This document shows, piece after piece, positions 18,213-37,662 of a stretch of 64,000 bases of DNA. Position 1 is the first letter of the stretch. Each line of letters opens with the position of its first letter. The position numbers and the translations under genes are program-made. The stretch is from Nostoc sp. DedSLP01 (lineage in GTDB: Bacteria > Cyanobacteriota > Cyanobacteriia > Cyanobacteriales > Nostocaceae), in contig JAVRCJ020000024.1 in assembly GCA_034530875.2 (NCBI GenBank), positions 32,001 to 96,000 on the forward strand, written 5' to 3'. Under the pieces are notes generated by a model that had not been told where the DNA came from, ran no database searches, and saw only the letters and a program-made list of their open reading frames with translations.

Positions 18213-19130
18213 TTATTCCAGCAGATATTCTCGATAGTGTTGCCAGGTTTTATTATTTGATAAGCTTTCTACTGGAATATCTTTAATTTCAATTCCTGCT
18301 CGAGCTGCTATGCTGGACAAGACTTCGCTGGCTAATCCCGTGTAGCCTGGTTCGTTGCCAAGCAATTGACGGAATTTGGCAGCGCAACTAGCTCCTTTGG
18401 CCAACTCAAATACATAATCGTCGGCTACTTCGCCTAATGCTTCTAGAGTTGAGCGTTCTGCACCACCAATGGAAGCACAAGCGTAACCGATACCTCCCCA
18501 AAGGTCTGCTTGTCTTGTTGTGGGAAAAGCACTTATAGTCTTGGCAATGCGGTTAACATCAGCACAATCTACTAACCAAATGCTGCGGCCTAGACCTTGG
18601 TCAAAGACACGACAGGCATAGCCAGAAAGCTGGACGGGAAGAGCTTGACCGTCTATGTAGTCTTGCCAGTAATAAACACCATGATTAAAAGCATAACCAT
18701 CGATTACTGGCCAAGATGTTACGGGGTTCTGTGCATTTAAATGTAGCTCAATAGGCAGTTTGTACCGGACTAGTCCCAAACCCACCCCCAAATAAACCAT
18801 AGTTTGATAAGCTGCTGTGGTTTTTTCGAGAAAAGCCTCTACTCGATTTTGGTTCTGGGGTTTGAGTGCATTTAGTTCGGTGAGAGCTATACCTACACCT
18901 TCTAAGGCAAATCCTAGCAACTCGGAGTCAATTGCATTGAGCTTGGCAACGATCGCCTCTGGTTGTTCGTCTGCGATCGCTGCATGGTATCCTTGCCACA
19001 TACCCTCGGCAATATGTCCAAATCGCTGCGGCACTTTCGGATCTTTTACCATTACCTTACGTGCCGCTAAATTAGCTCTCATCTGCGTCCTAGCTTGTTC
19101 GGCATTGATTTGCCAAGCTTGTTGTATCAT
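18213..19130 (-). CDS. DUF1702 / enediyne UnbL(E3)-like protein (copy 3, most divergent)
   Basis: GFALEGVG, VYLGVG, IDGYAF, VFDQGLGRSIW, ADLWGGIGYACASIGG, LAKGASCAAK. Confidence 0.8.
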   Translation of the reverse strand: MIQQAWQINAEQARTQMRANLAARKVMVKDPKVPQRFGHIAEGMWQGYHAAIADEQPEAIVAKLNAIDSELLGFALEGVGIALTELNALKPQNQNRVEAFLEKTTAAYQTMVYLGVGLGLVRYKLPIELHLNAQNPVTSWPVIDGYAFNHGVYYWQDYIDGQALPVQLSGYACRVFDQGLGRSIWLVDCADVNRIAKTISAFPTTRQADLWGGIGYACASIGGAERSTLEALGEVADDYVFELAKGASCAAKFRQLLGNEPGYTGLASEVLSSIAARAGIEIKDIPVESLSNNKTWQHYREYLLE

Positions 19131-19235
19131 CTTTGTTGTCCTTGTTGAGCAATAGTTTCTGGAGGTAGCATTTCTTTAAACGCAAAGAGCGCAGAGGCAC
19201 GCAGAGAATTCGCTAGGAATTCATGAAATGTTGCA

Positions 19236-20156
19236 CTAAGCTGCTAGGGTTGTTCTAACCGGATGAAAAACACGCGCTCGGTAATGGTGCCAACTTTGAG
19301 ATTCTAGTGCTTGATGATTGACTAAAGTATTAGCTACAGCATCAGTACTCATTCCCCACAAGACTTGACAAGCTAATTCTGTGTAAGGTGAGTAATTACC
19401 AACAGATTGGCGGGATTTGGCAGCGTAAGCTGTTCCTTGGGCTAATTGAAATTGGTAAACATCTGCTGCATTTTTTAGGGCTTCTATGGTTGCACGTTCG
19501 GCACCGCCAGCGTAAGCACAGGCGTAACCGACACCACCCCACAAATCTTGTCGCCTATCTTGGGCAAAGGTATCTATGGTGCGTGCAATGTGATTGACAT
19601 CGCCACCACCGATAAACCAAATACTGCGACCTAAACCTTGGTCAAAAACACTGCAAGCATAACCAGGAATTTGTTCCGGGATGGCTTGATTATCGAGGGA
19701 GTCTTGCCAGCGAAACATGCCTTGATAGTAGCCATAACCATCAATTGCTAAACAACTTCTCTCAAAGTTGAGCTTGTTTAAATGCGGTTTAATAGGCAGT
19801 CCAGCACGAGCCAACATCAAACCCAAACCCACATAAACCCAGTTATGATAAGCTGCACCATCACCTGCAACAAGAGTTGCCATCCGATTTTCGCTGCTGG
19901 GTGCGAGTAAGTCGCGTTGCGCTAGAGCCATACCGACGCCTTCGTAAGCAAAACCTTGCAATTCTGCATCGATTTCATTGATTTTAGGAGCGATCGCTTT
20001 TAAATCTTCACTAGCGATCGCTACATGATATCCTTGTAAAACCGTACTCCCAATCTTGCTTAATCGCTGTTGCACTCCGGCATCGCTTTTTTGAATTCCG
20101 CGTTTAGCCCAAGTATCAGCCATTAAGGTGTTAGCTTCATTTGTTTTAATTTCCAC
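19236..20156 (-). CDS. DUF1702 / enediyne UnbL(E3)-like protein (copy 2)
   Basis: GFAYEGVGM, VYVGLG, IDGYGYYQG, FDQGLGRSIWF, DLWGGVGYACAYAGG, LAQGTAYAAKSR. Confidence 0.85.
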   Translation of the reverse strand: MEIKTNEANTLMADTWAKRGIQKSDAGVQQRLSKIGSTVLQGYHVAIASEDLKAIAPKINEIDAELQGFAYEGVGMALAQRDLLAPSSENRMATLVAGDGAAYHNWVYVGLGLMLARAGLPIKPHLNKLNFERSCLAIDGYGYYQGMFRWQDSLDNQAIPEQIPGYACSVFDQGLGRSIWFIGGGDVNHIARTIDTFAQDRRQDLWGGVGYACAYAGGAERATIEALKNAADVYQFQLAQGTAYAAKSRQSVGNYSPYTELACQVLWGMSTDAVANTLVNHQALESQSWHHYRARVFHPVRTTLAA

Positions 20157-20187
20157 GATTCAAATTATCCTTGTAACGCAATAAGTA

Positions 20188-21129
20188 CTAAGCTGCTACA
20201 GTTGTTCTAACTGGATGAGGTATCCGCGACCTGTAATGCTGCCATAGAGGAGATTCTGGAGTTTCGCCATTAGTGGCTAAACTGTCAGCTACAGTATCAG
20301 CACTCACTCCCCACAACACGCGACAAGCCAATTCTGTGTAAACTGACTGATTACCAAGACATTGACGCGACTTGGCAGCATAAGCAGTACCTTGCGCTAA
20401 ATGCAAGCGATAAGCACCTGCTGCATTTCCTAAGGCTTCTATGGTTGCGCGTTCGGCACCACCAGCATAAGCACAGGCATAACCTACACCACCCCATAAG
20501 TCTTGTCGCCTATCGAGTGAAAAAGCATCAATGGTACGTGCAATGCGATTAACATCACCACCATCGACAAACCAAATACTGCGACCTAGACCTTGGTCGA
20601 AAACACTGCGGGTATAACCGGAAATTCCTGGCGAGATGACTTGCTTATCGAGGGAGTCTCGCCAATAAAACATCCCTTGATAGTAGCCGTAGCCATCGAC
20701 TAATAACCAACCCTTAGCGGTATCGAGTCTTTGCAAATGAGGTTCGATAGGTCGCCCAACTCTAGCTAACATCAAACCTAAACCCACATAAACCATGTTT
20801 GCATAAGGCGCACCATCACCTGTAACAAAGGTGGCTATACGATTTTGGCTAATTGGTGTGAGAAAATCGCGCTGTGCTAGTCCCATACCGACGCCTTCGT
20901 AAGCAAAGCCCCGCAACTCTTCATCGATTTCATTTAATTTGGGAGCGATCGCTTCTAATTCATCAGTAACAGCCGTGTGGTATCCTTTCATTAACGAACG
21001 GCCGACCTGTTCCAATCGCTTTTGTACACCAGCATCGCTTTCGCGCACGTCGCGTTCTGCCCAAGTAGCGATTAAATCTGTTGGTAATGTGGCTTTATTT
21101 AAACTTGATTGCCAAGCGTCTTGTATCAT
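20188..21129 (-). CDS. DUF1702 / enediyne UnbL(E3)-like protein (copy 1)
   Basis: Same motif set as copy 2; clearly paralogous at protein and nucleotide level. Confidence 0.85.
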   Translation of the reverse strand: MIQDAWQSSLNKATLPTDLIATWAERDVRESDAGVQKRLEQVGRSLMKGYHTAVTDELEAIAPKLNEIDEELRGFAYEGVGMGLAQRDFLTPISQNRIATFVTGDGAPYANMVYVGLGLMLARVGRPIEPHLQRLDTAKGWLLVDGYGYYQGMFYWRDSLDKQVISPGISGYTRSVFDQGLGRSIWFVDGGDVNRIARTIDAFSLDRRQDLWGGVGYACAYAGGAERATIEALGNAAGAYRLHLAQGTAYAAKSRQCLGNQSVYTELACRVLWGVSADTVADSLATNGETPESPLWQHYRSRIPHPVRTTVAA

Positions 21130-21144
21130 AATATTTTTCCTAAT

Positions 21145-22572
21145 TTAAAAAGCTGAATGCATGGAATTTTCCGGAATCCAAGTTCCGTGGAAACCGAAAG
21201 GAACTCGCTGCGGTAGAAGAATGCGGGCTACAGGTTCCTCTGTAATGTCTTGAGCATTAAGAACTACTAATTCTGAAGTTCTTGTAGCTTCGTCGTAGAC
21301 GAAAGTTAATAACCAACCATCATCCTCTTGAGTAGCGTGGGGACGCGGGACAAATACTGCCTCTCCTCCATAACGACCAGACCCCCACTCGTGGGTTTGG
21401 GAATAACCATTGGCAAAGTCATACTTAATTACTGCATCTAAAAAGAAAATAGGCAGCTGTTCCGGCACCATTCTGGCTGTGTAACCGTATTGATTTCGTC
21501 TGCCGACAAATTGCTGATTTAAAGTAGGAAATTCTGAAGCCAAATCATCAATTCTGCCTTCTCGCACTGCACCTGTGCGCAGATTGAAGCGCCAGCCATA
21601 TAACTGCGGCTTATTAACTTGATTATAGCGTAAATTTGTCTTTGTCGGTATGTTTAGTAGTTGAGCATCATCTGTGCGACAGCCAATGACGACAACTTCC
21701 TCTCCTGTTTCATAAGCATTGAGAGTATGCAAAACATAACAGGTAGAAACTTCAAACCAGCGGATATTGCTGTTATTGCCATGACGGGGAATGATACCAA
21801 AGCGGCTGGGCAGATTTGGTTCAAACATGTAACCTGGTTCTCTGCGTCGTAGCCTTTCTAAACTCAATGTCAGGGGCAAATCCATGAATATTGTATAGTT
21901 TGCAGTGATGGCAAAGTCATGCATCATGACCCCTCTAGGCAAATCTATGGGAATTGTTCTCAGTAACTCTCCTTTAGCTGAAACTACACCATATCTTAAA
22001 TAAGGTGGCTGTAGTAGAGAATAGCCAAAAAACATCATTTCCCCAGTTACAAAATCAACTTTCGGGTGAGCAGTGAAGGGAGAATTCAGTTGTCTTTTAT
22101 AAGCGAATGGCCCGATTGTTGTTAAGTCAGGTACGCTAATTTTGTATGGTTCAGCTCCCTCCCAAAGGGCCAAGAGTTGACCTGCGTGCCACACCAGGTT
22201 AGTGTTAGCAGTGTTCTTGAACGGACTGAAAAGATTATTGGGGGGGTTTTGCAGCTGTGGCGACTCCATCAAACTTGTCCAGATGGCTTTACCTACTTTC
22301 TGTTCTAGTTTAAATCCCCGTGTCTGGACATAGCGGTTGCGGTAAGTGGCTTTGCCATTACTAATCTGCACCCCATGCAACATACCATCTCCATCAATCC
22401 ATTTGTAATCGCCTTTGGGGAGAAATTGAGGATTAGGGCCATTGCGAATAAACATTCCTGATAAATCAGTTGGTAATTCTCCAATTACCAAGAGGTTACC
22501 GGCTGTGATTTCTGTTTGTACGGGAGAAAAATTACCTGTGAGATAAGGGCTGATTTTTTGAGCGACAATCAT
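21145..22572 (-). CDS. Carotenoid cleavage oxygenase (RPE65/CCO) family protein
   Basis: RNGPNP, DGDGMLH, four Fe-ligand His (TAHPK, MMHDF, VLHTLN, GFHG), EDDGWL; likely start MIVAQK at 22572. Confidence 0.92.
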   Translation of the reverse strand: MIVAQKISPYLTGNFSPVQTEITAGNLLVIGELPTDLSGMFIRNGPNPQFLPKGDYKWIDGDGMLHGVQISNGKATYRNRYVQTRGFKLEQKVGKAIWTSLMESPQLQNPPNNLFSPFKNTANTNLVWHAGQLLALWEGAEPYKISVPDLTTIGPFAYKRQLNSPFTAHPKVDFVTGEMMFFGYSLLQPPYLRYGVVSAKGELLRTIPIDLPRGVMMHDFAITANYTIFMDLPLTLSLERLRRREPGYMFEPNLPSRFGIIPRHGNNSNIRWFEVSTCYVLHTLNAYETGEEVVVIGCRTDDAQLLNIPTKTNLRYNQVNKPQLYGWRFNLRTGAVREGRIDDLASEFPTLNQQFVGRRNQYGYTARMVPEQLPIFFLDAVIKYDFANGYSQTHEWGSGRYGGEAVFVPRPHATQEDDGWLLTFVYDEATRTSELVVLNAQDITEEPVARILLPQRVPFGFHGTWIPENSMHSAF

Positions 22573-22610
22573 AGTTAAAACTATTTGATTATGGTGAATA
22601 AGATTATTAG

Positions 22611-23966
22611 TTAATGCTTCTTCTTTTCTGGGTAGGGAGGATATCTCCATTTCAAATCCATCAGAAAAGATTTATTTAATATACCTCTTTGATAAGAGAA
22701 GTTATCAAAGCCAGCTTTACCATGATAACGACCCATACCACTAGCACCAACTCCACCAAAAGGTAAAGCCGGAACGGTTAAATGCATCACGGTATCGTTA
22801 ATGCAAACTCCACCAGAGACTGTTTGCTGCAAAATTCGCTCTTGATTTTTTTGATTGCTGGAAAAGAAGTATAAAGCAAGGGGTTTTGGTTGTCGATTAA
22901 CTAAGGCGATCGCCTCTGATAAATTTGTATACTCTAAAACAGGAAGAATTGGGCCAAAAATCTCTTCTTGCATTATCTTGTCTTGCCAAGAGACTTTATC
23001 AATGACAGTAGGAGCAATATAAAGATCCTCTATATTTGTTTCGCCTCCCACTAAAATTTCCCCACTTCCTAATAATTGGGAAAGGCGACAGAAATGCTTT
23101 TGATTTATGACTCTAGCATAGCTCTTACTTACTGAAGGGTCATCACCGTAAAAATTTCGGATTTGTTTTTTGATATTGGTCAATAAATCTGTTTTAATTT
23201 TACGATTTACTAACAGATAATCGGGTGCAGTACAAGTTTGCCCAGCATTAAAGAATTTGCCCCAAACAATTCTTTTAGCTGTATGTTCGATGTGAATATG
23301 CTCGTCAACAATACAAGGACTTTTGCCACCAAGTTCAAGGGTAACTGGTGTTAAATTTTTAGCGGCTGCTGCCATCACAATTTTACCAACTTCAGTACCG
23401 CCAGTAAAAAAGATATGGTCGAAATTTTTTGATAATAGTTCTTGACTGGTTTCAATACCGCCTTCAATGACTTCAATAAAAGATGGGTCGAAATTTTCAC
23501 GAACTATTTTAGCTATAAGTTGAGAAGTAGCAGGAGCTATTTCTGATGGTTTTAAAATTGTACAATTTCCAGCAGCGATCGCACCTACTAAGGGTGCAAA
23601 CATCAAGTTAAATGGATAATTCCAAGGCCCAATAATTAAAATTATACCAAGAGGTTCAGAACGGATTTGAGCAGAAGAAAGAAACTGATAAAAGGGAGTA
23701 GGAGCTTTCTGCGGTTTTACCCACGATCTAATATTTTTGAGAGCAAATTTAATTTCTTCTAAAACTCCAATAATTTCAAAATACGCTTCAAATCCTGACT
23801 TATGCAAATCAGCTTTTAAAGCTTGAACAATATTATCTTTATTGTTCTCAATTACTTGTTGAAGAATTTTCAGTTGTTGAATCCGAAAATCAATATTCTT
23901 AGTTTTGCCAGTATTAAAAAACTGGCGCTGATGTTCGAGTTCATTATAATCTATTTGAGTGAGCAT
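22611..23966 (-). CDS. Aldehyde dehydrogenase (ALDH3/CALDH-like)
   Basis: PWNYP, LELGGKSP (Glu), NAGQTCTAPDY (Cys), EEIFGP, PFGGVGASGMGRYHG. Confidence 0.95.
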   Translation of the reverse strand: MLTQIDYNELEHQRQFFNTGKTKNIDFRIQQLKILQQVIENNKDNIVQALKADLHKSGFEAYFEIIGVLEEIKFALKNIRSWVKPQKAPTPFYQFLSSAQIRSEPLGIILIIGPWNYPFNLMFAPLVGAIAAGNCTILKPSEIAPATSQLIAKIVRENFDPSFIEVIEGGIETSQELLSKNFDHIFFTGGTEVGKIVMAAAAKNLTPVTLELGGKSPCIVDEHIHIEHTAKRIVWGKFFNAGQTCTAPDYLLVNRKIKTDLLTNIKKQIRNFYGDDPSVSKSYARVINQKHFCRLSQLLGSGEILVGGETNIEDLYIAPTVIDKVSWQDKIMQEEIFGPILPVLEYTNLSEAIALVNRQPKPLALYFFSSNQKNQERILQQTVSGGVCINDTVMHLTVPALPFGGVGASGMGRYHGKAGFDNFSYQRGILNKSFLMDLKWRYPPYPEKKKH

Positions 23967-24005
23967 AGCTTTTTAGGTATTCAGCTAGTAGTTATTAGGT
24001 CATTG

Positions 24006-24060
24006 AAAAAAGAAATGGCAGCGGCTAATTGTGTAACTTTTAAAACTAAACTGCCATTTC
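24006..24060 (-). terminator. Possible intra-operon stem-loop / weak terminator
   Basis: 10-bp inverted repeat GAAATGGCAG / CTGCCATTTC (29-nt loop), followed on the minus strand by a T6 run. Confidence 0.35.
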
Positions 24061-24081
24061 AGTTGTTTTCCTCAGCTAAAA

Positions 24082-25953
24082 TTAAGACCTGATTTCAGCT
24101 TGTAGTGATACTAATTCTGGAACTTTTGCTGTATCTTCGTTCTTTAGGCTTTGTAATTCATTAGTTCCATTTTCTACGCTTTTTCCATTACCCAAGCTAA
24201 TCCAAGGCTGCAATTTTGGTTGATGTTGGTAACTCTTGAAAGCTTCTCTAGCTTTTGCAGTGATACTGTTGTCTGGTACACCTCTAGTTTTCAATTTGAA
24301 AATAAAGTTATCCCAACCAGCTACAGCAGATGCTTTCAGTAAAGCGAAAACGTGCTTGAGGTTTTGTGGCGCTAACAAGCCTTTTATTCCAAATGCCTTC
24401 CACAAAAACTTCAGATACCAAATAGCGACAAAGAAGTGAGTGTATTGCATAGAAACAAAAACATTAGCTCGTTGGGGTTCATACTTAGTGAGGTGGATAT
24501 ATTCATCAAAATCTCGGCTCATTATGTAATTAAAAGGCAATTCATCTGCTCGATGGGTATACATAAACCCAATATTGGCGTTCTTTTCTGCCAACTCTGT
24601 TAACTGTTTGTAGGCAGCATTTAGTATCTCTGTAATGTATACACGACCTGGTTGTTTAATTTTTGCCAGGAAATTCAAATCTAAATGCCATTTCCCTACA
24701 TACAAAGGAATCATCATACCAAACCACCACATGTTTTCTAGGAACATGCGATAACTCATGATGCTAGCGTTACCAAGATGTTTAGGATGATTGCTAACAA
24801 GAAGATTGTTGCGATCGATCATTCCTAAATTAAAGCCGTTATAAACTGCACGTTTCTTCTCTGCATCTGGTTCGCCTGCTAACTTAGCGCGAATTACTTC
24901 TGTAATGGTGTCTATTTCAAAAGACATCATCGTCATTCCCATCGAATAGAAAGGATCGAAGATAGCTGCTGCATCACCAATTACATACCAGTTATCTCTT
25001 GAGAGAATAGTCTTACTCTTGTGCGCTAGCCTTGGCCAGTAATGAAAATCGATTTCCTCTCCACTCTTGAGCAGTCGATAAATAATGTTATGATTCGCTT
25101 CCAGAAAAGCATAAAACTTTTCTTTAGTATTGACACTGTGAGCATCAATATATTCGTGATGGTGGACTAATCCGATTGACAATTCCATGTTTTGGGTGTC
25201 TGTGGGAATCATCCAAATCCAATGTCCGTGTCCCATCCAATGATTAGTAGCGTAGTAGTGGCTACAGGTGGAAACTAAAGGATCGTAACCGCTATGAAAG
25301 ATAGTGCGATCGACATTTTTAACGCGCATCCATGCCGAACCATTATTAACGCCACACACATTTTCAGGGCCAAATAATAGATTATCTGTCTTACGACCGA
25401 TGATAAATTTGCGTCCTGCCGCATCAATAACATGTTTGGCTGTAAGTTCGATATACTCACCATCTAGTTTGACTTTCACCACATTCAAACCATCTCCAGG
25501 CGTTAAGTCAACATCAACAACACGGCCTTGATAAAAGACAGCACCCATCTGTTGATTCATCCTCAGCACATCTCGCTCAAATTTAGGACGGTGAATCAGA
25601 ACAGAAGCCAAGGGCGGTTGGCGAATAGCCCAAAGATGATGGTAGTCATTAATGTTTTCTGTACTTTCTGGATGCTTAGGCCAATGAAAGTTTAAACCGA
25701 ATTTTGGCGGATGATGCTCAACCATGTAGTCATAAAGACCCAACTCTTTACAAATCATTAACGTAGAGATTTCAACCGCTGATTCACCTACTTTCAAATC
25801 TTTTTCTGTCCGTTCTTCAGGACGAGGATCGACCAAAGCAATTTTGATATTGGGAACATTAAGTAACAGGTGACGAGCTTGGCATACCCCTGCTAATCCA
25901 GCACCCATAATTACTACATCATAATTATAGGTTTGGCATTGAGTGCTATTCAT
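24082..25953 (-). CDS. Flavin-dependent halogenase (cyanobacterial AerJ/McnD/ApdC-like), copy 2
   Basis: GAGLAG FAD motif, KVGES, WIWMIP (WxWxIP), GDAAAIFDPFYS.G. Confidence 0.85.
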   Translation of the reverse strand: MNSTQCQTYNYDVVIMGAGLAGVCQARHLLLNVPNIKIALVDPRPEERTEKDLKVGESAVEISTLMICKELGLYDYMVEHHPPKFGLNFHWPKHPESTENINDYHHLWAIRQPPLASVLIHRPKFERDVLRMNQQMGAVFYQGRVVDVDLTPGDGLNVVKVKLDGEYIELTAKHVIDAAGRKFIIGRKTDNLLFGPENVCGVNNGSAWMRVKNVDRTIFHSGYDPLVSTCSHYYATNHWMGHGHWIWMIPTDTQNMELSIGLVHHHEYIDAHSVNTKEKFYAFLEANHNIIYRLLKSGEEIDFHYWPRLAHKSKTILSRDNWYVIGDAAAIFDPFYSMGMTMMSFEIDTITEVIRAKLAGEPDAEKKRAVYNGFNLGMIDRNNLLVSNHPKHLGNASIMSYRMFLENMWWFGMMIPLYVGKWHLDLNFLAKIKQPGRVYITEILNAAYKQLTELAEKNANIGFMYTHRADELPFNYIMSRDFDEYIHLTKYEPQRANVFVSMQYTHFFVAIWYLKFLWKAFGIKGLLAPQNLKHVFALLKASAVAGWDNFIFKLKTRGVPDNSITAKAREAFKSYQHQPKLQPWISLGNGKSVENGTNELQSLKNEDTAKVPELVSLQAEIRS

Positions 25954-26008
25954 GGAATTTTCCTTTTTACTAAGTACAAAAATTGATTAATGTGATTTTT
26001 TTTTGTGT

Positions 26009-26135
26009 CACGCAAAGACGCAAAGGCGCAAAGAAGAGAATGAAAAGAAGGACTTACTAAAGTAGTGAGTACTTCGCTTATCTTGTTGGGCAAACCTCTG
26101 CGTAACTTTGCATTTGACTCTGCGCCCCTGGAGCG
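26009..26135. repeat. CGCA(A/G)AG-type short repeats in inverted arrangement
   Basis: CACGCAAAGACGCAAAGGCGCAAAG with a downstream complementary CCTCTGCG...CTCTGCGCC; related blocks near 19180, 28067 and 35690. Confidence 0.55.
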
Positions 26136-28118: not shown

Positions 28119-31100
28119 TTAAATTGAGCCAGCAATCCAATTTAAGGAACGGAATGGAATTACAACTAAGGCAATCATTCTTTCAGGGCTGCGTGTTAGT
28201 TTGATGGGGAAGGTGAGAACTTTAAGTTGGCTGTTGGCAGTGGCATCGCTGAATAAGATGCTATCCCCTTCTATGCGTTCGATCGCCAAATTAATATCTT
28301 TGACTTTAGTCGCCTTACGCAAGGCTTCTATAGCTGTCCAAATCCGCGTACCTGCGCTATCTACTGACTCTTTAGTTTCTAGCTGTTGGATTAATGGATA
28401 TCGAGAAGAATTCAGTAAGGCAATCCAATCTTCGGTACTGCGATGAGTTATCGGTTCGATATCGCAACCTTGCACTCCTCGACCGGCAACGCAGAAACAA
28501 ACACGTTCGTCATGGGCAAGGGATACTTCGATTTTTTCTTCCGCCAGTCCCACAACTACTGGTTTGCCAGATTCCGTCCACTGAATGCGGACTTTGGATA
28601 TGAGATTAGCATTATTGTTCAAAAGTTGAGCGATCGCTCTGTGGAATAAAGGTAATTCCAATTGATGGCGTTCTGTGGGTAAGAGTGTATGGATACCGGG
28701 AAGATAACCCAATGATATCTCTGGTGCGACAACTTTGAATAAAGGCGATCGATTGCTCAATTCTCTAGCAAGAATCAGTTCATCTCTTTGACTGGGATCT
28801 GCCAAATCTTCAGCAGTGGGATTCTCCTGGCGGTGTTCTAGTATCCGCAATTGATAGCTATTGAGTCTTTCGATAACACGACCATCGGGAGCTACTAAGA
28901 AAACATTACTGCGATACTGTTGACCTTCTCGCCCTTGTGGTGTAGTCACACCAATATACGAACCAGCTTCATCTTTATCTGATTGATAGATTTCAATACT
29001 ATCGATGCGGATGGGCAAACAAAGATCCTGGGGAATTACTAGTTGTCCGGCTTGTAACAAAGAGTCTCTGCAATAAGGATCTCCCAGTAAGAAAGGCCCT
29101 TGCGCTCTATCTAAAGATTGTTTTTGCTCCTCGGCAGAATACAAGTTTCTTTGGGTTTTGAATACGCACTTCTGGGAATTCAGGCTATAAACCTGTTGTA
29201 AACGCTGGAACTTGGTCCCTTGGAATAGTAACCAACTATAGAGATCTGCTTGAGGCTCAATATCTAGAGGCACTTCTGGAACTTCAACCTGTTCTAGAGG
29301 TGGCTGTTTGTCAACATCTAGTAAAAATGTCGCTGAAAAATGGCTGATGGCAAATCCTGTCTGTTCTGTTTTGATGGTGACATAAACTTGCTGCGGATCG
29401 CTTTTTAACTTCCTCTCCAGTACCTCTGCATGAATTTCTATGTCTACTCCTTTGTCAGGAGCTACAACAATAGGACGTTCCAGACGGATATCTTCTATTT
29501 GTACAGCTGGTAAGGAATCTTGACTGGTGACATAAGCAACTGCTTGTGCCATAGCTTCCAAACCAAATACAGTCGGGAACAGATACGAACCTTTATACAG
29601 GTGATCATGTAAGTATGAATCCCGTTCCAGACTCAGATGCGCCCTGAGAACAACCTCTACACCTGGTTGATAAATCAAGATTTTCTCTAAAAACTTCGAT
29701 TTAGCAGGAGGTGAGAACAATCCAGGATACCAAGTATCAAAGCCACTCGATTCAAAAGCTGCTAAGGTTTGCATCGGTGCGGCTATCACAACTCGCAAAT
29801 CTGCGGCTTCATTTTTGATGAGATGCAAGAATCGACTAACGCCTGCATCTTTGGGAATGGCACTAATACCCATCTTGTTCAGGCTGCGCACGCTACCCAT
29901 CCGCGCCCCCATACCTACTTCTTCCCAGACGCTGTACGCCATTGATACCACGGCAGTTTCAGGGTGCTGGACTTGAAAACGGCGTAAAATCAGATCCAAA
30001 GTTTCATTAGAGAAGCCATACCAAGCATTGCGTTGCATCCCTGTAAAGCCGATGACTGAAGAGAAACCAGCGAAAAGCTTCAGTGATGTACCTTCTAGTG
30101 CTTTACAGAGATTAATCAAACCGAGAAGCTTAGGACTGATTTCATCAAATGCTGCTTCTGTAGAGACTTGCTCAATCAGTCTCGGCTTATTGAGAGCAGC
30201 CCCGTGAATAACTCCTGATATCTCACCTAGTTCTTGTCTGACTTTTTGTAAAAGATTAACTACTGCTTGATAGTCAGCAACATCGCACGCATAGTAGCGG
30301 CAGGTTAATCCTTCAGATTGAAAGCGTAAGAGAGTGCGGGTAATATCAGAATTACTGTTGTCATCCTGATGAAGCGAACGTCCCACAAGTACCACGCGGA
30401 CACCTGTATCTTTAGCCAGAGCCAAGGCACACTCGGCAGTAATACCTTTTGCTCCACCTGTAACGAGGATGACATCCTCAGATGACCAGGTAATATTCCG
30501 GTCTAAATAATCTACAGGTTGCTGTACCTGAGGCCGAGGAACGTAACGTCTGAGATCGGTATCGTAACTTACAGTTGTATAGACGTGGGGAGTAGAAAGT
30601 TCTCTAAAGACGCATTCTGCTAGATTATTGGGATCTACCGTAGGAGAGAAATCAATTACTCGAACTTTGAGATCGGTTCGTTCTAGATGCAAGCTGGCAG
30701 CAAAGCCAACTGTACAGCATTGGTCGATATCTGGTAGTGGCAGTTTTGCTCCGAAATATCCCCCACTAAATTGAACGTAAGCTACTGTTGTATGGTCGCG
30801 GGATGCTAGAGGTGGAGTGGCGATACTGCGTAACCGTTCAATCATCCCAATCAGACGAGCTTCTGATGACAGTTGAGCATTCGGTGTAGAAGGTAATACC
30901 GCGATGAAGTGGGTTAAATTGAGGCTGTTAGCTAGTGTTTGAGGGCTGGCTTCTGCAAAGGTTAGACTTTGAACTTGAGCGCCTTGAGTCCGAAGTTGGT
31001 CTGATAAGGCTGCTATTTTGTCTGCATTACTTAATTCATAAAGAATTAGGACATTTGCAGCTTGCCAGTTTTCTTCCATCTGTCTGCCTAAAGCGACTGA

Positions 31101-34100
31101 GGGAATTTCCTCTGGAACATTTTGGACGATATAATCGCGTACCAGTTGCTTACGGGTTAACTCTGGCCCGATCGCTGTTATTTTGCCATTGTTTTGTCTA
31201 AAATCTTGCTTGAGAGAAACTGTTGAGCTAGATTCTGAGATTTTGATTCCATTACCGTTACCATTATTGTTTGGTATGTAATTGTGAATTGTCTCAGCAA
31301 TCTCTTGAATCGTGGCGTTGGCTAGAGAAGGCGGGTCAATTTTCCCGGCGGCGCCAAATAGCTTGGCGGCTTCTGCGACGACTTCACCGGCTTTGATGGA
31401 ATCAAGGTTGAGGTCGTCGAGCAATCGCAATTCGGCTGTGATACTTTCTCTGACATATCCTGTTTGTTGGATAATCAGGTCAGTCAGTGAAGAGGCGATC
31501 GCATCAGTTGTTTTCGTTAAGCTTGTGGGTATTATAGAAGCTGCTTCATGACCGTTGGATATGAAACTGCGAATCGTTTCAGCTATCTCTTGAATTGTGG
31601 CATTGGCTAAAGCAGGTGGGTCAATTTTCCCAGCCACACCATATTGTTTGGCGGCTTCTGCGACAATTTCACCGGCTTTGATGGAATCAAGGTTGAGGTC
31701 GTCAAGCAATCGCAATTCTGCTGTAATACTTTCTCTGACATATCCTGTTTGGCGAACAATCAAGTCTGCTAACAAGAACTCAACACTCTGATTAGTGTTT
31801 GTTTCTGCTGGCTTCAGTAACGTAGAAACGGTACTGTGGGAACCATTACCATTAACTGCATGAGTTATTCTCGCACCATTTTGAGGTGTTGCAGCTAAAG
31901 GCAGAGTTTGCATATCGGCTCGGATGACTTCAGCGATAAACTTACCGCGTCGAGCCAGGTAATCTTGCAGTACCTCTGGTGAAGTATGGTTATGTTCGGC
32001 AAACAGCGAATAATTCAACAAGCTTTCAGAACCAATTCCCAAGGATGGAGATGAGTGAGTTGCAGATACAGCAAATGGCCTTTCTACAGGATTGTCGATG
32101 AAAATGCGCTCTGAGGCTGGTACAAAAGGACGTACAAGCCGACCTTCGTAAAGTGCTTCCCAGTTGATGTTATGACCGCGAACAAAGACGTTAGCTAACA
32201 TCGTATTCAATGACTGGTCAAATCCAGGTTTGGCTTCCACTGGCAGACATTCCAGCCCTTGCAACCCGGTGATGTCGTTTACCAATCCTGAGAGTACTTT
32301 GCCAGGGCCGACTTCTATGAGGACATCGCATATTTGCTCTAAGGTTTTCACCAGGGATACGAAGTCTACTTGTGCTAATACCTGATGGGCGAAGTGTTCG
32401 CGCAATTGCAATCCTATTGGTGGCTGTTTGCCATCTACAGATGAAACTAGGTCTAAGGTAGTGTTCGAGAGTCTATCTGGAATTAGTTCGTATTTGTGTA
32501 GATATTGGGCGGCTTCCGAGACAAGTTGAGAATGAAAGGCATGAGAAACTGGCAGCTTGTGTGTCCTGATTTCTTCCGCGGCGGCGAGTTCAATGACTTG
32601 TTCGATGCTCGATCGCTCGCCAGATATAATTATCTGGTTGGGACTATTGATATTGGCGATCGCTACATAGCCATTGACTTGCTTTAACAATTCCTCGGCT
32701 TTTACACGGGAGCAAGCAATACTTACCATGCTTCCGCCCTGCTTACACGCAGACATAGCGCGTCCCCGAACAGCAGCTAAACGAATCAAAGCTTGCTCGT
32801 CAAATGCACCTGCTGCGTGAAAAGCAGTTAGTTCTCCCAGACTATGACCGCCGACAGCAACGGGGTTTAATCCTAGATGTTGCAGGTAGCGCATCCAAAG
32901 CAAAGAAGTTAAGCAAATAGCTGGTTGAGCGATTTCAGTTTGGGCAATTTTCCCTGACCATTCTTCAAGCTGCTCTCCATTGATAGCCCGGTCTACAGGC
33001 TGATAAATCGACTCATTAATACCTGGAACACCAATTTCTTGCAGCCATTTGTCGGCTCGATTTACTAATTCCTTCGCCCAGCTAAAGCGTTGTACGAGGG
33101 TACGGGCCATGTTCAGCTTTTGAGAACCTTGACCGGGGAAGAGAAAACCGATACGGCTTGGTTGGACTTTATGGCCGACCCAAATTCCTTGTTGTGAGTT
33201 GAGGATGACCTCTCCCTCGGCTAGTGGTTTAGCATTCAACAATTCTTGCAAGAAAGTCAGACGTTCAACTAACTCATCAGGCGATCGCGCGATAATTGCT
33301 GCTCTAACTGGAAGTTCCTGATTGACTTTTTGAGCAAGATGTGATGCTAAATCGATGAGTTCGCTTAAACTCAAACCTTGGACTTTCGGAAGTAATGCAT
33401 CTATGCGTTGCAACAAACCTGCAATTGATGCCGCACTCAAGACAAAAATCTCTGTTTCTTGAGCAGAAACTAACAAAGCTTCCTCGTCAATTGACGGTTC
33501 TAGTTGAGTAGCAGGAGCATCGCCAGATTCTAAAGTAACGTGGCAATTGATACCGCCAAATCCCATCGCGGAGACTCCAGCCCTGAGCGTATCTGTTGGC
33601 TGGCGAATTTCTCCTTGCATCACCGGGTAAAGAGAACGAGCAGCTTTGTCAAAGACTTCGCTTGGCTCGTTGCAACCGGCTAATGGCGGTATGACTCGGC
33701 GGTTAACAGCCATCACAGCTTTGATGAACCCGCCAATACCTGCTGCGGCTTTGGTATGTCCGACTAAAGATTTGAAGGAGGTAACACCACAAGAACGGAA
33801 ATTGGTTTCGCTATCCGCACCCATCGCTAAGGCAATACCTTCTAATTCGGCGCGATCGCCTACTGGTGTGCCGGTACCATGACCTTCGATAAAATCAACC
33901 TGACTTAAGCTGTAACCTGCTCGGTTATAGGCGCGGCGTAGTGCCTTGGCTTGTCCTTCTCGAGAAGGAGCTGTTAGCCCGCCTTTACCATCAGATGAGA
34001 TTCCCCAGCCATTCAACACTGCATAGATATAATCGTTATCGGCCCGGGCATCTTCTAAGCGCTTCAAAACGACAAAACCAGCACCCTCTCCGGGGATAAA

Positions 34101-34925
34101 ACCACTGGCTTTTTTATCGTAAACGGTCATATCTTTGCTAGTTAAGGCACCTGTTTTAGCAAATCCTACTAATTCAAAGGTGTCTAAGCTAATATCTACG
34201 CCGCCAGCTAGTGCTAAATCGAGGTCGCCATTGCTTAATGCATTAGCAGCAGTGGCAACGGCAATCAATGAGGAAGAACAAGCGCCGTCTACCGTATAAC
34301 CACCACCATGAAAGTTAAAGAAGTTACAAATTCTGCCAGCAATAGTGTTAGAAAGATTTCCAGAAAGTGTGTCTTCGGTGAAGGGCGAGAATACTGATTT
34401 GTAGTATTCTTGCATTGCCGTTGTCAGTTCATCTACGACTTGTAATGGCAAACCCTTGGCTTTTGCGGCTGTCTGTATGACTCGTTCGATAAACGGCCAG
34501 CGTAGCCGCATGTTATTAGAGCGTGTTTGTTCGCCTGTTAAGGAGTTACCGAGGATGACTCCTGTACGTTCGTTGGGAACATTGGCCTTTGTATAACCTG
34601 AATCTTGTAAGGCGGCGATCGCTACTTCTAATGCCAGCCAGTGAGCGATATCTGCGGTCTCGACTACAGTTTTGGGAATGCGCTTACTTGCCCAATCAAA
34701 ATCAAAACCCTCAATCACGGCCATACGTTTGCCGTAGGTTTTGTCTGGCACCGCCGGGTCTGGATCGTAATAATCTGCAAGTGGTAAACGCTGCACTGGC
34801 GATTCTCTAAATTGTCGCCGCCGGGAAAGTATGTTTTCCCAAAGTTGTCGTAAATCCCTCGCACCAGGATACCAACAACCCATACCAATAACCGCAATTC
34901 TAGGTTGAGATATTTCTATTTGCAT
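28119..34925 (-). CDS. pksE: Enediyne-type iterative type I polyketide synthase (PKSE-like): KS-AT-ACP-ACP-KR-DH-PPTase
   Basis: KS DGACSSS/EGHGTGT/GHTKAAAG with PKSE-like HWLAL...GNSLTGE..RSNNMRLRWP; AT GHSLG + HAFH (malonyl); two ACPs LDDLNLDSIKAGE; KR GGAKGIT..YGFSN; DH HLYKGSYLFP; C-terminal PPTase SLAHD/GCDIE/WTAIEALRK; no ER or TE. Confidence 0.9.
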   Translation of the reverse strand: MQIEISQPRIAVIGMGCWYPGARDLRQLWENILSRRRQFRESPVQRLPLADYYDPDPAVPDKTYGKRMAVIEGFDFDWASKRIPKTVVETADIAHWLALEVAIAALQDSGYTKANVPNERTGVILGNSLTGEQTRSNNMRLRWPFIERVIQTAAKAKGLPLQVVDELTTAMQEYYKSVFSPFTEDTLSGNLSNTIAGRICNFFNFHGGGYTVDGACSSSLIAVATAANALSNGDLDLALAGGVDISLDTFELVGFAKTGALTSKDMTVYDKKASGFIPGEGAGFVVLKRLEDARADNDYIYAVLNGWGISSDGKGGLTAPSREGQAKALRRAYNRAGYSLSQVDFIEGHGTGTPVGDRAELEGIALAMGADSETNFRSCGVTSFKSLVGHTKAAAGIGGFIKAVMAVNRRVIPPLAGCNEPSEVFDKAARSLYPVMQGEIRQPTDTLRAGVSAMGFGGINCHVTLESGDAPATQLEPSIDEEALLVSAQETEIFVLSAASIAGLLQRIDALLPKVQGLSLSELIDLASHLAQKVNQELPVRAAIIARSPDELVERLTFLQELLNAKPLAEGEVILNSQQGIWVGHKVQPSRIGFLFPGQGSQKLNMARTLVQRFSWAKELVNRADKWLQEIGVPGINESIYQPVDRAINGEQLEEWSGKIAQTEIAQPAICLTSLLWMRYLQHLGLNPVAVGGHSLGELTAFHAAGAFDEQALIRLAAVRGRAMSACKQGGSMVSIACSRVKAEELLKQVNGYVAIANINSPNQIIISGERSSIEQVIELAAAEEIRTHKLPVSHAFHSQLVSEAAQYLHKYELIPDRLSNTTLDLVSSVDGKQPPIGLQLREHFAHQVLAQVDFVSLVKTLEQICDVLIEVGPGKVLSGLVNDITGLQGLECLPVEAKPGFDQSLNTMLANVFVRGHNINWEALYEGRLVRPFVPASERIFIDNPVERPFAVSATHSSPSLGIGSESLLNYSLFAEHNHTSPEVLQDYLARRGKFIAEVIRADMQTLPLAATPQNGARITHAVNGNGSHSTVSTLLKPAETNTNQSVEFLLADLIVRQTGYVRESITAELRLLDDLNLDSIKAGEIVAEAAKQYGVAGKIDPPALANATIQEIAETIRSFISNGHEAASIIPTSLTKTTDAIASSLTDLIIQQTGYVRESITAELRLLDDLNLDSIKAGEVVAEAAKLFGAAGKIDPPSLANATIQEIAETIHNYIPNNNGNGNGIKISESSSTVSLKQDFRQNNGKITAIGPELTRKQLVRDYIVQNVPEEIPSVALGRQMEENWQAANVLILYELSNADKIAALSDQLRTQGAQVQSLTFAEASPQTLANSLNLTHFIAVLPSTPNAQLSSEARLIGMIERLRSIATPPLASRDHTTVAYVQFSGGYFGAKLPLPDIDQCCTVGFAASLHLERTDLKVRVIDFSPTVDPNNLAECVFRELSTPHVYTTVSYDTDLRRYVPRPQVQQPVDYLDRNITWSSEDVILVTGGAKGITAECALALAKDTGVRVVLVGRSLHQDDNSNSDITRTLLRFQSEGLTCRYYACDVADYQAVVNLLQKVRQELGEISGVIHGAALNKPRLIEQVSTEAAFDEISPKLLGLINLCKALEGTSLKLFAGFSSVIGFTGMQRNAWYGFSNETLDLILRRFQVQHPETAVVSMAYSVWEEVGMGARMGSVRSLNKMGISAIPKDAGVSRFLHLIKNEAADLRVVIAAPMQTLAAFESSGFDTWYPGLFSPPAKSKFLEKILIYQPGVEVVLRAHLSLERDSYLHDHLYKGSYLFPTVFGLEAMAQAVAYVTSQDSLPAVQIEDIRLERPIVVAPDKGVDIEIHAEVLERKLKSDPQQVYVTIKTEQTGFAISHFSATFLLDVDKQPPLEQVEVPEVPLDIEPQADLYSWLLFQGTKFQRLQQVYSLNSQKCVFKTQRNLYSAEEQKQSLDRAQGPFLLGDPYCRDSLLQAGQLVIPQDLCLPIRIDSIEIYQSDKDEAGSYIGVTTPQGREGQQYRSNVFLVAPDGRVIERLNSYQLRILEHRQENPTAEDLADPSQRDELILARELSNRSPLFKVVAPEISLGYLPGIHTLLPTERHQLELPLFHRAIAQLLNNNANLISKVRIQWTESGKPVVVGLAEEKIEVSLAHDERVCFCVAGRGVQGCDIEPITHRSTEDWIALLNSSRYPLIQQLETKESVDSAGTRIWTAIEALRKATKVKDINLAIERIEGDSILFSDATANSQLKVLTFPIKLTRSPERMIALVVIPFRSLNWIAGSI

Positions 34926-35101
34926 ATCTGTAATTAATCTACTTCCAACACAAAATGAAAACTTTGATTCTAATGCTCAAGTTTGATTTTCAAGTTATAT
35001 GACTCTTCTTGTAGGATGAGCGAGACACCTATCCTCCAAACTCAGCAGTCTAGAGAGTTTACCCTACAAGAATTAGAGTAGTAATTTATTGCTTGAGTTG
35101 C

Positions 35102-35602
35102 CTAACTAGCTATCTTGACCATTTCTTCAAACTTGCGATCGAGCATTTGCATAATTGTGGAAATCTTTTCATCGGGGAATTGACCTAGCAGTGACGATGG
35201 TTTGTCATAAGCAACATGTGTCTTACCATCGTAGTCATCGTAGACAAATAGCCTTAATGGAACATAAAGACCAACCGCAGGGTTTTGTTCAAACATTTGA
35301 TTGGCTATTAATGGGTTACCGATTATGTAAAGCTTGGCCTTTTTATTTTTACCAGCAAGAGACATGAGTTTGCCATGTTCAATTTGCGAAAAGATGGTAA
35401 AACCGCTTTGACCAATCATCGATTCAATACCACTTTTTATTTGTTCAAACGATTGCTTGGCTGCAATCATTTGTTGAAAAAGTGCGCTGTCAATTTTACC
35501 ATTGATGGTTTCGATATTATTGGTAACTTCTTCAAATGACTTTTCCGAAGTAACAATTATACGAGTTGCTGTAAAATTGACGGTTTCTATCACAGTTTGC
35601 AT
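35102..35602 (-). CDS. DUF302 domain protein
   Basis: KSFEEV, F.IF..I.HG, IGNPLIA..M..NP.VGLYVPLRLFVY pattern. Confidence 0.8.
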   Translation of the reverse strand: MQTVIETVNFTATRIIVTSEKSFEEVTNNIETINGKIDSALFQQMIAAKQSFEQIKSGIESMIGQSGFTIFSQIEHGKLMSLAGKNKKAKLYIIGNPLIANQMFEQNPAVGLYVPLRLFVYDDYDGKTHVAYDKPSSLLGQFPDEKISTIMQMLDRKFEEMVKIAS

Positions 35603-35739
35603 GACTATTTAACTCTTTTAATCTAGAGGTGTACAATCAATTCCTACAGTTACTAAGTCAGATTATTAGGGCGTTGCAGATTGAAAACTCACGCAGAGGC
35701 GCAGAGTCGCAGAGAGTAAGAGTTGAGAAGAGTTGATTT

Positions 35740-37662
35740 TTATGTGAGAACAAAGCGTTCTTGGAGAATGCAAGTACTGAGCATTTTCATCAATGTCGGA
35801 TCTATAGAACCGAGTTGATTTTCATTCATGTGTGGTATTTGGTCGAGGAATTGAACTACTGCTGGTTGGTTATAAAAAGGAACAGAAGCAAATGCTGAAC
35901 TGCGTAAGGTGTCTTGGACAAGTTGGTGTAGAGGTTCGTTTTGCTTCAATGTGGAAGGCGGGGCAAAAAATGGATGTTTTTTGCGGTTATATACCATATC
36001 TGGTAGATAAGGTTTGGCAGCTTCTCGCAATATGTATTTGACATTCATGCCACGAATCTTCAATGAAACAGGAATATTGCGCACTGTTTCTACAAGTTCA
36101 TGGTCTAAAAATGGTAGTCTTCCTTCTGTAGAATGCGCCATTTCTGCACCATCTCCCAATATCCTAAATAGGTAGGGTAGAACAGTTTTAGACCATAAAT
36201 AAAGAGACTGATGAACGGGTTCTCGTTTTGCTAGTTGTCCTTGGACGTCGATTTCATTGAAGAATATACGATATGCATCTCGCTGGCCAAAGTGAGCTAA
36301 AAATTCTGGTGAGTATAGAGAAAGAGATTTGGCATATCCTTTAGCATTAGCTTCTATCCAAGTGGGTACAAACCCTAAAAGGCGTTCGATATTAGCCAAA
36401 GGTTTGGATATTTCTTCAGGTAAGAAACCGGCTGCGGCGGAGACTTGGTTGTTACGTTTTAATTCTTCCAAGATATGCTTGATAGTCTGTTCGTCTTGAC
36501 CTTTGGTGTTGTAACGCAACATGTCCATCAGAAAATGAACGTAGCCGCCAAAGATTTCATCAGCACCTTCACCTGTAAGTACAACTTTGTAACCTGCTTT
36601 TTGTACTGCTCGACTCAAAAGGTACTTAGCAGCAGCGCCAGCATTGATACACACCATTTCACAGTGCCAAATGGCGTCTGCAAAATGCTCGGCTAAGTCA
36701 GATTGAGTGATGGGGACAATTTCATGGTTTGCTCCAGCTTTGGCTACTGCTTCCCGAGCGAAAACTTCTTCGTTGTAGTCTTCGTGGTCGAAGGCGAGGG
36801 TAAATGCTGTAATTGGCTCGCTTGTATGGGTGGCCGCAATTCCCAACACCGCAGATGAATCAATTCCGCCACTAACGTGACAAGCTACCGGTACGTCTGC
36901 TCTTAACCGCAGTCGTATAGACTCGTTTAAACTATGGCGAACTTGTTGAATATAATCTTCTTCGCTTTGTTGGGGTTGTACATCGTTATTGGGGTAATCA
37001 AAATCCCAATAACGATGCAGTTGGATATTAGTACGAGATGCGAGTAGAAAATGTCCGGGTGGTACTTGATATATGTTTTTGAAGAAAGTCCGATCTGGGC
37101 TGAAGAGTCCGAGATCGGCTCTAAACCAAAATTCGCTATCCCAGTTAGCCGGAACGCCCGCAGCAAATAAAGCTTTGACTTCTGAAGCCAAGTACAGTGT
37201 ATCGCCATGCATAGTGTAGTACAGAGGCTTGATGCCAAAGCGATCGCGCGCTGCAAACAATGTTTGATTGCGCTCATCCCAGATAACAAAAGCAAATTCA
37301 CCCCGCAAATGATGGAGACATTGAGTGCCAAACTCGTTATATAGATGAATCGCAATTTCGCTGTCAGAGTGGGTTTGCAGCTTATATCCTTTTTGCTTTA
37401 AGTCCTGCTGTATCCTCTCAAAGTCATAAAACTCTCCATTGGCAACAATATGGAGTGTGCCATCTCGATCGCTTATTGGTTGGTCTCCACTAGTGAGGTC
37501 AATAATACTAAGCCTTCTATGTCCTAACCCGACTCTGCCATCTTCGGAAATCCAAACCTTCTGTGCGTCAGGGCCTCTATGATGTAGGCTATCTATTCCT
37601 CGCTTCAAAGAGGTTTCGGAAATTGGTTCCTGTCTTGAGAACAATGCTACAATCCCACACAT
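35740..37662 (-). CDS. asnB: Asparagine synthase (glutamine-hydrolysing)-like amidotransferase, cluster-associated
   Basis: N-terminal MCGI (Ntn Cys), HRGPD, GHRRLSIID, ARDRFGIKPLYY, SGGIDSS, TGEGADE, RLPFLD. Confidence 0.92.
   Translation of the reverse strand: MCGIVALFSRQEPISETSLKRGIDSLHHRGPDAQKVWISEDGRVGLGHRRLSIIDLTSGDQPISDRDGTLHIVANGEFYDFERIQQDLKQKGYKLQTHSDSEIAIHLYNEFGTQCLHHLRGEFAFVIWDERNQTLFAARDRFGIKPLYYTMHGDTLYLASEVKALFAAGVPANWDSEFWFRADLGLFSPDRTFFKNIYQVPPGHFLLASRTNIQLHRYWDFDYPNNDVQPQQSEEDYIQQVRHSLNESIRLRLRADVPVACHVSGGIDSSAVLGIAATHTSEPITAFTLAFDHEDYNEEVFAREAVAKAGANHEIVPITQSDLAEHFADAIWHCEMVCINAGAAAKYLLSRAVQKAGYKVVLTGEGADEIFGGYVHFLMDMLRYNTKGQDEQTIKHILEELKRNNQVSAAAGFLPEEISKPLANIERLLGFVPTWIEANAKGYAKSLSLYSPEFLAHFGQRDAYRIFFNEIDVQGQLAKREPVHQSLYLWSKTVLPYLFRILGDGAEMAHSTEGRLPFLDHELVETVRNIPVSLKIRGMNVKYILREAAKPYLPDMVYNRKKHPFFAPPSTLKQNEPLHQLVQDTLRSSAFASVPFYNQPAVVQFLDQIPHMNENQLGSIDPTLMKMLSTCILQERFVLT

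Follow-up and report, generated by a model that had tools for sequence, protein, structure and literature searches.

We analysed a stretch of 64,000 nucleotides from Nostoc sp. DedSLP01 (hereafter the window; all coordinates are positions in these 64 kb) and studied a cluster of ten genes, all on the minus strand, built around an iterative polyketide synthase (PKS) of the enediyne type (PKSE). Read along that strand, the cluster begins with an AsnB-family glutamine-dependent amidotransferase (35740..37662; Pfam Asn_synthase and GATase, and NCBIfam) and a DUF302 protein that counts as near-core (35102..35602; Pfam). The synthase follows (28119..34925) and is composed, by Pfam and motifs, of ketosynthase (KS), acyltransferase (AT), two acyl carrier protein (ACP) domains, ketoreductase (KR), dehydratase (DH) and phosphopantetheinyl transferase (PPTase), with no thioesterase (TE) domain. 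Next come two putative flavin-dependent, ChlA-like halogenases (halogenase 1, 26178..27998; halogenase 2, 24082..25953), a dedicated aldehyde dehydrogenase (ALDH; Pfam Aldedh; 22611..23966) and a dedicated paralogue of the carotenoid cleavage oxygenase (CCO) family (Pfam RPE65; 21145..22572). Three DUF1702 genes resembling enediyne E3 end the cluster and are assigned by Pfam and tree to lineage 1 (20188..21129), to a recent duplicate of lineage 1 (19236..20156) and to lineage 2 (18213..19130).

The gaps between neighbouring genes measure 15-224 bp, except for an apparent overlap of ALDH and CCO, which arises because an upstream ATG extends the CCO open reading frame (ORF) to 22650; the true CCO start is likely 22572. 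The ratio of nonsynonymous to synonymous substitution rates (Ka/Ks) against relatives (L001, G164 or L007) lies at 0.08-0.34 for all ten genes, which are real, intact and under purifying selection. The original prediction, made from the letters of the window, had described ten co-oriented genes in this order with intact motifs, and the ORF coordinates, Pfam, motif checks and Ka/Ks agree with it. Among named relatives, Nostoc records come closest, at 84-94 % identity for most genes. Since the block of PKS, halogenase, ALDH, CCO and DUF1702 genes is found again, with some genes inserted, in 15 other clusters, the arrangement is not due to chance. Promoter and terminator scans of the locus gave results at chance level and an Rfam search gave no match. 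Decayed copies exist in close relatives, with a 194-aa fragment of a single halogenase at L010:4542-5126 and a split ALDH at L007:2514-3869.

The synthase and the enediyne cassettes

The synthase carries DGACSSS and two His motifs in its KS, GHSLG and HAFH in its AT, two ACPs and motifs for KR, DH and PPTase, and Pfam alone recovers KS-AT-ACP-KR-DH. Its KS is 50.5 % identical to that of the C-1027 PKSE. We placed it in a KS tree of 59 rows with the C-1027 and S. clavuligerus clusters and the cassettes of two cyanobacterial genomes (G068 and G116) as PKSE references. All PKSE-type KSs form one clade (support 100/100), which splits into four canonical sequences (100/96) and 40 halogenase-linked cyanobacterial ones (100/98), and the window KS falls within a 16-member clade (95/97). 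An identity as polyunsaturated fatty acid (PUFA) or Hgl synthase is rejected: in an approximately unbiased (AU) test of 15 rows, including one Hgl-type row identified from gene context, grouping with the genome's own HglE-type KS has a p-AU of 7e-5. The NCBIfam PfaA model falls below its cut-off on the synthase. The phylogeny and the AU test thus uphold the earlier claim of a PKSE-type rather than a PUFA or Hgl enzyme.

A minimal enediyne cassette is defined as PKSE, TE, E3, E4 and E5 in PMC10760148 and PMC9992847. We searched the source genome, which is 99.8 % complete, for these components. For the TE, E10, three free and three fused queries return no tblastn match; on a TE profile canonical E10 proteins score 175-182 bits, whereas the best candidate in the genome reaches an E value of only 0.008. 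That profile was built from the 18 fused TEs described below, whose own scores on it are circular. E4 (CRTAC1/UnbV) gives no tblastn match in the genome with three E4 queries; as a control, a cyanobacterial E4 query recovers E4 in the other three canonical loci. E5 (UnbU) gives remote tblastn matches only, on two other contigs and in unrelated context (27-32 % over 145-180 aa). The idea that E4, E5 or E10 act in trans is therefore rejected, as none was found in the genome by tblastn or, for E10, by the TE profile. E3 is represented by the three DUF1702 genes, the sole copies in the genome. Because E4, E5 and E10 were not found, the cluster is not a 9- or 10-membered enediyne cassette, and the prediction that it would not make such an enediyne is borne out at the level of the cassette. 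Pfam detects no 4HBT domain in the synthase. Generic hot-dog proteins do exist in the source genome, so a non-cognate hydrolase could possibly act as the release enzyme.

The likeness to a C-1027-type cassette thus lies in the PKSE domain order with a C-terminal PPTase, in the KS identity and in E3 homologues at 25-34 %. The cluster differs from that type in its two ACPs, in a KS that belongs to the sister clade, in the missing E10, E4 and E5 and in the added halogenases, CCO, ALDH, DUF302 and AsnB. (We label the Sgc genes within the C-1027 reference by gene position.) Complete canonical E3-E4-E5-PKSE-E10 cassettes do occur in cyanobacteria, in G068 (L028-L029) and G116 (L032-L033), and their PKSEs group with the actinobacterial PKSE in the KS tree. 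A cyanobacterial enediyne KS clade is shown in PMC4247773, and PMC9682884 describes polyene polyols from a PKSE cluster. The cluster in the window would work like a PKSE polyene pathway, yet it falls outside the family of enediyne cassettes. In G068 a TauE-like gene precedes E10.

A cyanobacterial family and its thioesterase-less clade

Within the same taxonomic family, 41 of 301 genomes were found to carry the halogenase subfamily of the cluster, as were 20 of 401 of the order. From part of the halogenase-carrying genomes we took 44 stretches with a PKSE-type PKS; many of them end at 20 kb or at a contig end, and counts of accessory genes over the 44 are minima. Four loci in which the halogenase adjoins a modular PKS or nonribosomal peptide synthetase (NRPS) or other genes (G300, G647, G839, G761b) and the four canonical loci were kept outside this set. 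The same halogenase subfamily also stands beside modular PKS/NRPS or other genes at L057, L064, L102 and L110.

A fused hot-dog TE with the E10 motif ends 18 of the 44 clusters, and 26 have no TE. As an independent check, Pfam 4HBT_2 was found in 11 of 20 C-terminal PKS pieces tested and not in that of the window. In the TE-fused PKSEs, which are often split into two or three genes, the TE follows the PPTase and is apparently a double hot-dog, with two E10 matches in one ORF (for example L053:6341-11284 and L061:4176-11951).

The cluster of the window belongs to a group of 16 that all have halogenases, CCO, ALDH, at least two DUF1702 genes and no TE. This group was defined by gene content before the KS tree recovered the same 16. 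ALDH is found in every one of them compared with none of the 28 other family clusters, the 18 TE-fused ones included, and DUF302, which weakly resembles an entry called 'putative fluoride ion transporter CrcB', is found in 15 of the 16 and none of the 28. In each of the 16 clusters CCO and ALDH have the halogenases on one side and the E3 genes on the other, and this conserved synteny across cyanobacterial genomes supports the prediction that both belong to the cluster. The trees of the CCO, of the DUF1702 proteins and of the halogenases (first two copies) all contain groups specific to the clade, with subgroups that are similar from one tree to the next.

AsnB behaves differently. Its Ka/Ks is 0.08 in the window, where it is intact, but it adjoins only two of the 16 clade clusters, in addition to the cluster of G928, and a search of ten other clade genomes gave no orthologue above 38 % in any of them. 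One close relative, G164, lacks AsnB though it is 75-90 % identical in the other cluster genes, and the copy beside the TE-fused cluster of G842 is a 259-aa fragment. Three AsnB homologues at 72-74 % hinted at cluster linkage in more distant relatives, which was not confirmed; in a metagenome scan with AsnB, a weak PKS neighbour was seen at one of the 80 loci listed, and a halogenase, CCO or DUF1702 at none of them. AsnB is thus rejected as a core gene and, since it lies outside the conserved core, amidation would be a local elaboration rather than a general trait. The amide proposed in the original prediction may therefore hold for this strain and does not extend to the clade.

Among the DUF1702 proteins, homologues of which are named 'enediyne biosynthesis protein E3' by the source databases, the lineage-1 member is 33 % identical to the protein in the E3 position of the C-1027 cluster. 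The gene at 19236-20156 is 68-69 % identical to the preceding one. The DUF1702 tree contains lineage 2 (15 rows, support 100) and three groups of lineage 1, which it does not firmly join; in this tree the extra DUF1702 copy of the window has arisen recently, by duplication of one gene of an older pair. Ka/Ks for the lineage-2 protein is 0.29-0.34. A predicted model is all-helical (predicted local distance difference test, pLDDT, 90). A sequence search gave no solved relative, Foldseek returned nothing at E <=0.001 and the best Z in a wide search was 3.9; these negatives demonstrate neither a new fold nor a function.

The retention of E3 raises the alternative that the E3 pair and the halogenases replace the E3/E4/E5 halogenation and desaturation, giving a halo-polyyne or an enediyne-like compound. 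The E3 homologues are kept, duplicated and under selection, the lineage of an anion importer discussed below tracks the family, and a diiodotetrayne intermediate has reportedly been found for enediynes. We nevertheless consider this quite improbable. E4, E5 and E10 are missing as described, E4 and E5 occur in none of the 44 family clusters, and 20 of the 28 clusters outside the clade have no DUF1702 within the stretch examined. Moreover, PMC9992847 presents the free heptaene made by the TE as the on-pathway enediyne precursor.

TE-less clusters outside the clade show other arrangements. In G430 (L068:11865-19998) the PKSE is split around a gene for a class I/II aminotransferase, which could possibly represent a third release mode. 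Three TE-less sister clusters (L091:4243-5280 in G728, and those of G800 and G693) have a 345-aa gene upstream, and the one tested is a divergent O-methyltransferase; an O-methyltransferase in such clusters recalls the ChlA/DmtA pairing of DIF-1 synthesis. TauE/SafE-family transporter genes adjoin three halogenase-PKSE clusters (L067:14281-15390, L068:6863-7960 and L069). Many sister clusters have a protein of 120-135 aa after the halogenases (for example L053:17529-17927), and a 132-aa member has no Pfam, NCBIfam or Atlas match.

A member of this family was noted as early as 2008, when PMC2442094 reported a PksE-like PKS and three halogenases in Microcystis PCC 7806 as possibly making unknown compounds. 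The window likewise places a PKSE-like PKS beside ChlA-like halogenases, two in number where such clusters have one to three. As judged from the published description and from homologues in other Microcystis (61-62 %), the two loci are alike in their iterative PKS of PKSE-like type and in several FAD halogenases related to a Dictyostelium halogenase; the clade of the window stands apart from the 18 TE-fused clusters of the family in having no TE and in carrying CCO, ALDH, the E3 pair and DUF302. An enediyne-type cluster in Microcystis is also noted by bioRxiv 2022.10.12.511943, and PMC12838216, PMC11264947 and bioRxiv 2026.09.06.749771 assign no product in the parts covered. The literature searched, which excludes subscription papers, MIBiG and some supplements, holds no product assignment and no account of the TE-less CCO/ALDH clade. 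The statement that PKSE-halogenase loci are cyanobacterial orphans without an assigned product is thus consistent with these sources and with PMC2442094. The further suggestion of an undescribed pathway stands as far as the product is concerned and needs narrowing otherwise, as the locus represents one branch, here newly distinguished, of a common cyanobacterial family that has been on record since 2008.

Proposed halogenation, cleavage and product

Halogenase 1 contains GxGxxG, K85, WxWxIP and FDPFYSxG; PMC8407142 gives GxGxxG, WxWxIP and Fx.Px.Sx.G as halogenase motifs, and these are present in the FAD enzymes of the cluster. Among 102 sequences compared, the two Trp residues of WxWxIP never vary and 99 retain K85. 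K85 aligns with a Lys of PltA and is presumably the catalytic Lys. Against D. discoideum ChlA (Q54FI4), halogenase 1 is 39 % identical over 589 columns and halogenase 2, itself 70 % identical to halogenase 1, is 38 % identical over about 590. A halogenase model (pLDDT 93) has PltA, PltM and CtcP as its best fold matches. In an exhaustive search the cluster of sequences containing ChlA was among the best full-length non-cyanobacterial matches, and Dictyostelium ChlA appears to be the closest characterised relative found among the 20 named of the 150 matches listed. Assignment of both enzymes to the halogenases is well supported by family membership and predicted fold. The two halogenases of the original prediction are thus upheld; their ChlA-like character goes beyond that prediction, and so does the finding that sister clusters have a fused E10-type TE, which is missing in this clade. 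JamD-type alkyne halogenases are a different enzyme class.

Another reading, which we hold to be very improbable, takes both FAD enzymes for hydroxylases or reductases and the product for an oxygenated, non-halogenated polyene acid. It could draw on the partial Pfam Trp_halogenase match of both proteins, with low scores (E about 1e-8, 34-36 bits), and on the GG-reductase and maturase families that NCBIfam lists below their cut-offs. The identity to ChlA over the full length, the conservation of the Trp pair and K85 and the halogenases that make up the best fold matches all speak against it.

Halogenase homologues are named from Microcystis, Moorena, Fischerella and Aetokthonos. In PMC2515870 the three PKS-linked halogenases of PCC 7806 are placed with a Dictyostelium halogenase; a relation to AerJ, McnD and ApdC is rejected, as that paper calls the PKS-linked enzymes far more distant. 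ChlA-like halogenases at 33-43 % were also seen in P0124, P0125, P0130, P0132, P0139 and P0147, with eukaryotic sources and one amoeba transcriptome among them, so that the ChlA-like family reaches past cyanobacteria and Dictyostelium.

The role of ChlA as a polyketide chlorinase has been shown by genetics; according to PMC9489281, it chlorinates THPH, a phloroglucinol that is a free polyketide. The enzymes of the window are like ChlA in identity over nearly the full length and in common motifs, and differ in that ChlA has a hybrid of fatty acid synthase and chalcone synthase as its partner and a free aromatic substrate, whereas the partner here is a reducing polyene synthase. It is conceivable that the product is instead a chlorinated aromatic or 4-hydroxy-2-pyrone resembling DIF-1, with cyclising off-load, ring chlorination and a polyene side chain shortened by CCO and ALDH. 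PKSE enzymes yield pyrone shunt products, cyclisation would solve the release problem, and the ChlA substrate, the phloroglucinol halogenase PltM and CtcP among the top fold matches and the O-methyltransferase of the sister clusters all point in this direction. We judge it unlikely all the same: the KR and DH motifs favour a reduced chain, Pfam finds no cyclase or methyltransferase among the ten genes, and in the TE-fused majority this halogenase subfamily occurs together with a release domain of the E10 type.

The CCO keeps His195, His244, His308 and His488 in alignment with a solved carotenoid 9,10-dioxygenase, its closest solved structure, and we take these residues to be the iron ligands. 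Three named NCBIfam carotenoid-cleavage models all fall below their cut-offs on it. The 16 clade CCOs form one clade (support 91), sister to a stand-alone paralogue of the same genome (62 % identical), and the ALDH has a 61 % paralogue elsewhere in the genome. The pair resembles an apocarotenoid pathway with a CCD1-like CCO and an ALDH in its four-His CCO, its closest structure and its paralogues (61-62 %); it differs as the window enzymes are dedicated paralogues inside a PKS cluster and would act on an unbranched halogenated polyketide.

Given these paralogues, the pair could also be read as a module for turnover or self-protection, which would destroy a reactive polyene instead of contributing to the final product. 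The stand-alone genes probably serve apocarotenoid metabolism, and most other family clusters do without CCO and ALDH. In our view the chance of this is slim, since the two genes hold a fixed position between halogenases and E3 genes in all 16 clusters, their presence coincides with TE loss, and an acid-activating amidotransferase was gained in one sublineage.

The proposal we favour, and to which we give an even chance, is that the product is a halogenated polyene-derived acid, most likely chlorinated, that is amidated in this strain. PKSE function and the co-inheritance of halogenases, CCO and ALDH suggest that a polyene is chlorinated, cut and oxidised, the chemistry being that of the enzyme families. 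The self-priming synthase, whose domains are observed, would build a conjugated polyenoyl chain from malonyl-CoA, by analogy with PKSE. The two halogenases would then chlorinate electron-rich carbons, most likely the alpha-carbon of a beta-ketoacyl intermediate or a release enol; CmlS acts on a malonyl enolate (PMC8407142). Off-loading without E10 may proceed by halogen-assisted hydrolysis, by a housekeeping hydrolase, by the E3 pair or by the CCO itself. The dedicated CCO would cut one C=C bond with O2 to an aldehyde, which the adjacent ALDH would oxidise to an acid, as family chemistry and the strict linkage of the two genes suggest. AsnB, in this sublineage only, would convert the acid to an amide or supply an amide-bearing starter. 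Finally, the E3 pair may perform a further polyene step and a DevBCA exporter encoded nearby may export the product. The original prediction of a halogenated polyene or polyyne, cleaved to an aldehyde and oxidised to an acid, is thus compatible with co-conserved enzyme families; the polyyne finds little support and the chemistry would follow from the families.

A precedent is aurantoside (ats), for which PMC9802089 proposes an iterative polyene PKS with two halogenases. The likeness lies in that proposed logic; aurantoside differs in its PKS type, NRPS/TE release and glycosylation, and the closest homologues listed there for its halogenases are not cyanobacterial.

Several observations weigh against the chlorinated polyene acid. 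As the 16 clusters form one clade, the correlation between CCO presence and TE absence amounts to one evolutionary event. The CCO is absent from eight of the ten other TE-less clusters and so is not a general substitute for the TE, and a distant CCO is present in two of the 18 TE-fused clusters. An E10 search of five clade genomes located E10 at another locus in two and only matches <=30 % in the other three, which complicates a simple story. AsnB is missing from 14 of the 16 clade clusters, Pfam finds no flavin reductase gene among the ten, and E3 is present without its E4 and E5 partners. The ChlA substrate is a free aromatic polyketide and not a polyene (PMC9489281), and in the parts of PMC9802089 covered the aurantoside halogenases are not shown as members of the subfamily of the window.

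It is doubtful, though conceivable, that the CCO is itself the chain-release step, replacing E10 by cutting the chlorinated polyene on the ACP so that chain length is set by oxidation. The ALDH, together with AsnB here, may then finish the freed aldehyde, and the E3 pair may act without E4 and E5. The weak point is that an ACP-bound stub must still come off. As a rule for the whole family, replacement of the TE by the CCO is rejected; the pattern is confined to the 16-member clade and to G298, which represents another TE-less lineage and whose CCO is related (50 %). If true, such release would be a PKS termination mechanism without precedent in the literature searched.

The clade can be seen as a natural deletion-and-swap experiment on enediyne machinery, with PKSE and E3 kept and E10, E4 and E5 absent. 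It makes testable the function of E3 alone, the release from PKSE without E10 and the substrates of bacterial ChlA-like halogenases, and it hints at organohalogens of an uncharacterised class in cyanobacteria of soil and fresh water.

Genes flanking the cluster

The cluster probably extends beyond its ten genes. Upstream, a divergent MarR regulator and a DevBCA-type exporter (39285..43215, plus strand), recognised by family matches and synteny, are a probable export arm. A devC gene lies near 22 of the 44 family clusters and the MarR-DevBCA layout is repeated in G928; several other DevB paralogues exist in the source genome.

Downstream, an RTX-repeat protein and a GMC oxidoreductase (13800..17813, minus strand; family matches and synteny) are possible accessory genes. 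GMC genes lie near seven of the 44 clusters, and the GMC protein of the window is 27 % identical to that of the C-1027 cluster, which we take to be E9. The downstream RTX-repeat, GMC, UbiA, YCII and ECF genes are syntenic in G928. The RTX calcium-binding repeat protein (15681-17813) contains an internal duplication of 1002 nt, and RTX genes stand beside the PKS in four TE-fused clusters. The UbiA-family prenyltransferase-like gene (12380-13453), of no named subfamily, could be a tailoring gene.

Further downstream, an anion ABC importer that resembles NrtB/D/A but has a changed binding pocket (5716..8991, minus strand; sequence compared with solved NrtA) is possibly linked to the cluster. The unit has no NrtC and differs from solved NrtA at several conserved positions, which we assume to have a nitrate-binding role. 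The importer group occurs in 59 of 301 genomes and is stand-alone in six lower-identity loci examined. The halogenase family is present in 14 of the 16 genomes with an importer copy at >=80 %, compared with 41 of 301 overall, in a set where kin are not independent. We speculate that this importer takes up halide. One of the two exceptions directly follows a modular PKS/NRPS cluster.

Two minor features lie elsewhere in the window. A YCII gene is duplicated in tandem (10683-11771, 96 % over 300 nt), and the duplication takes in a piece similar to the beginning of the ECF sigma gene. At 48801-53085 a BrxC/D-family ATPase, a TerB-C domain protein and a DUF815 ATPase stand in a row, possibly as a defence locus.

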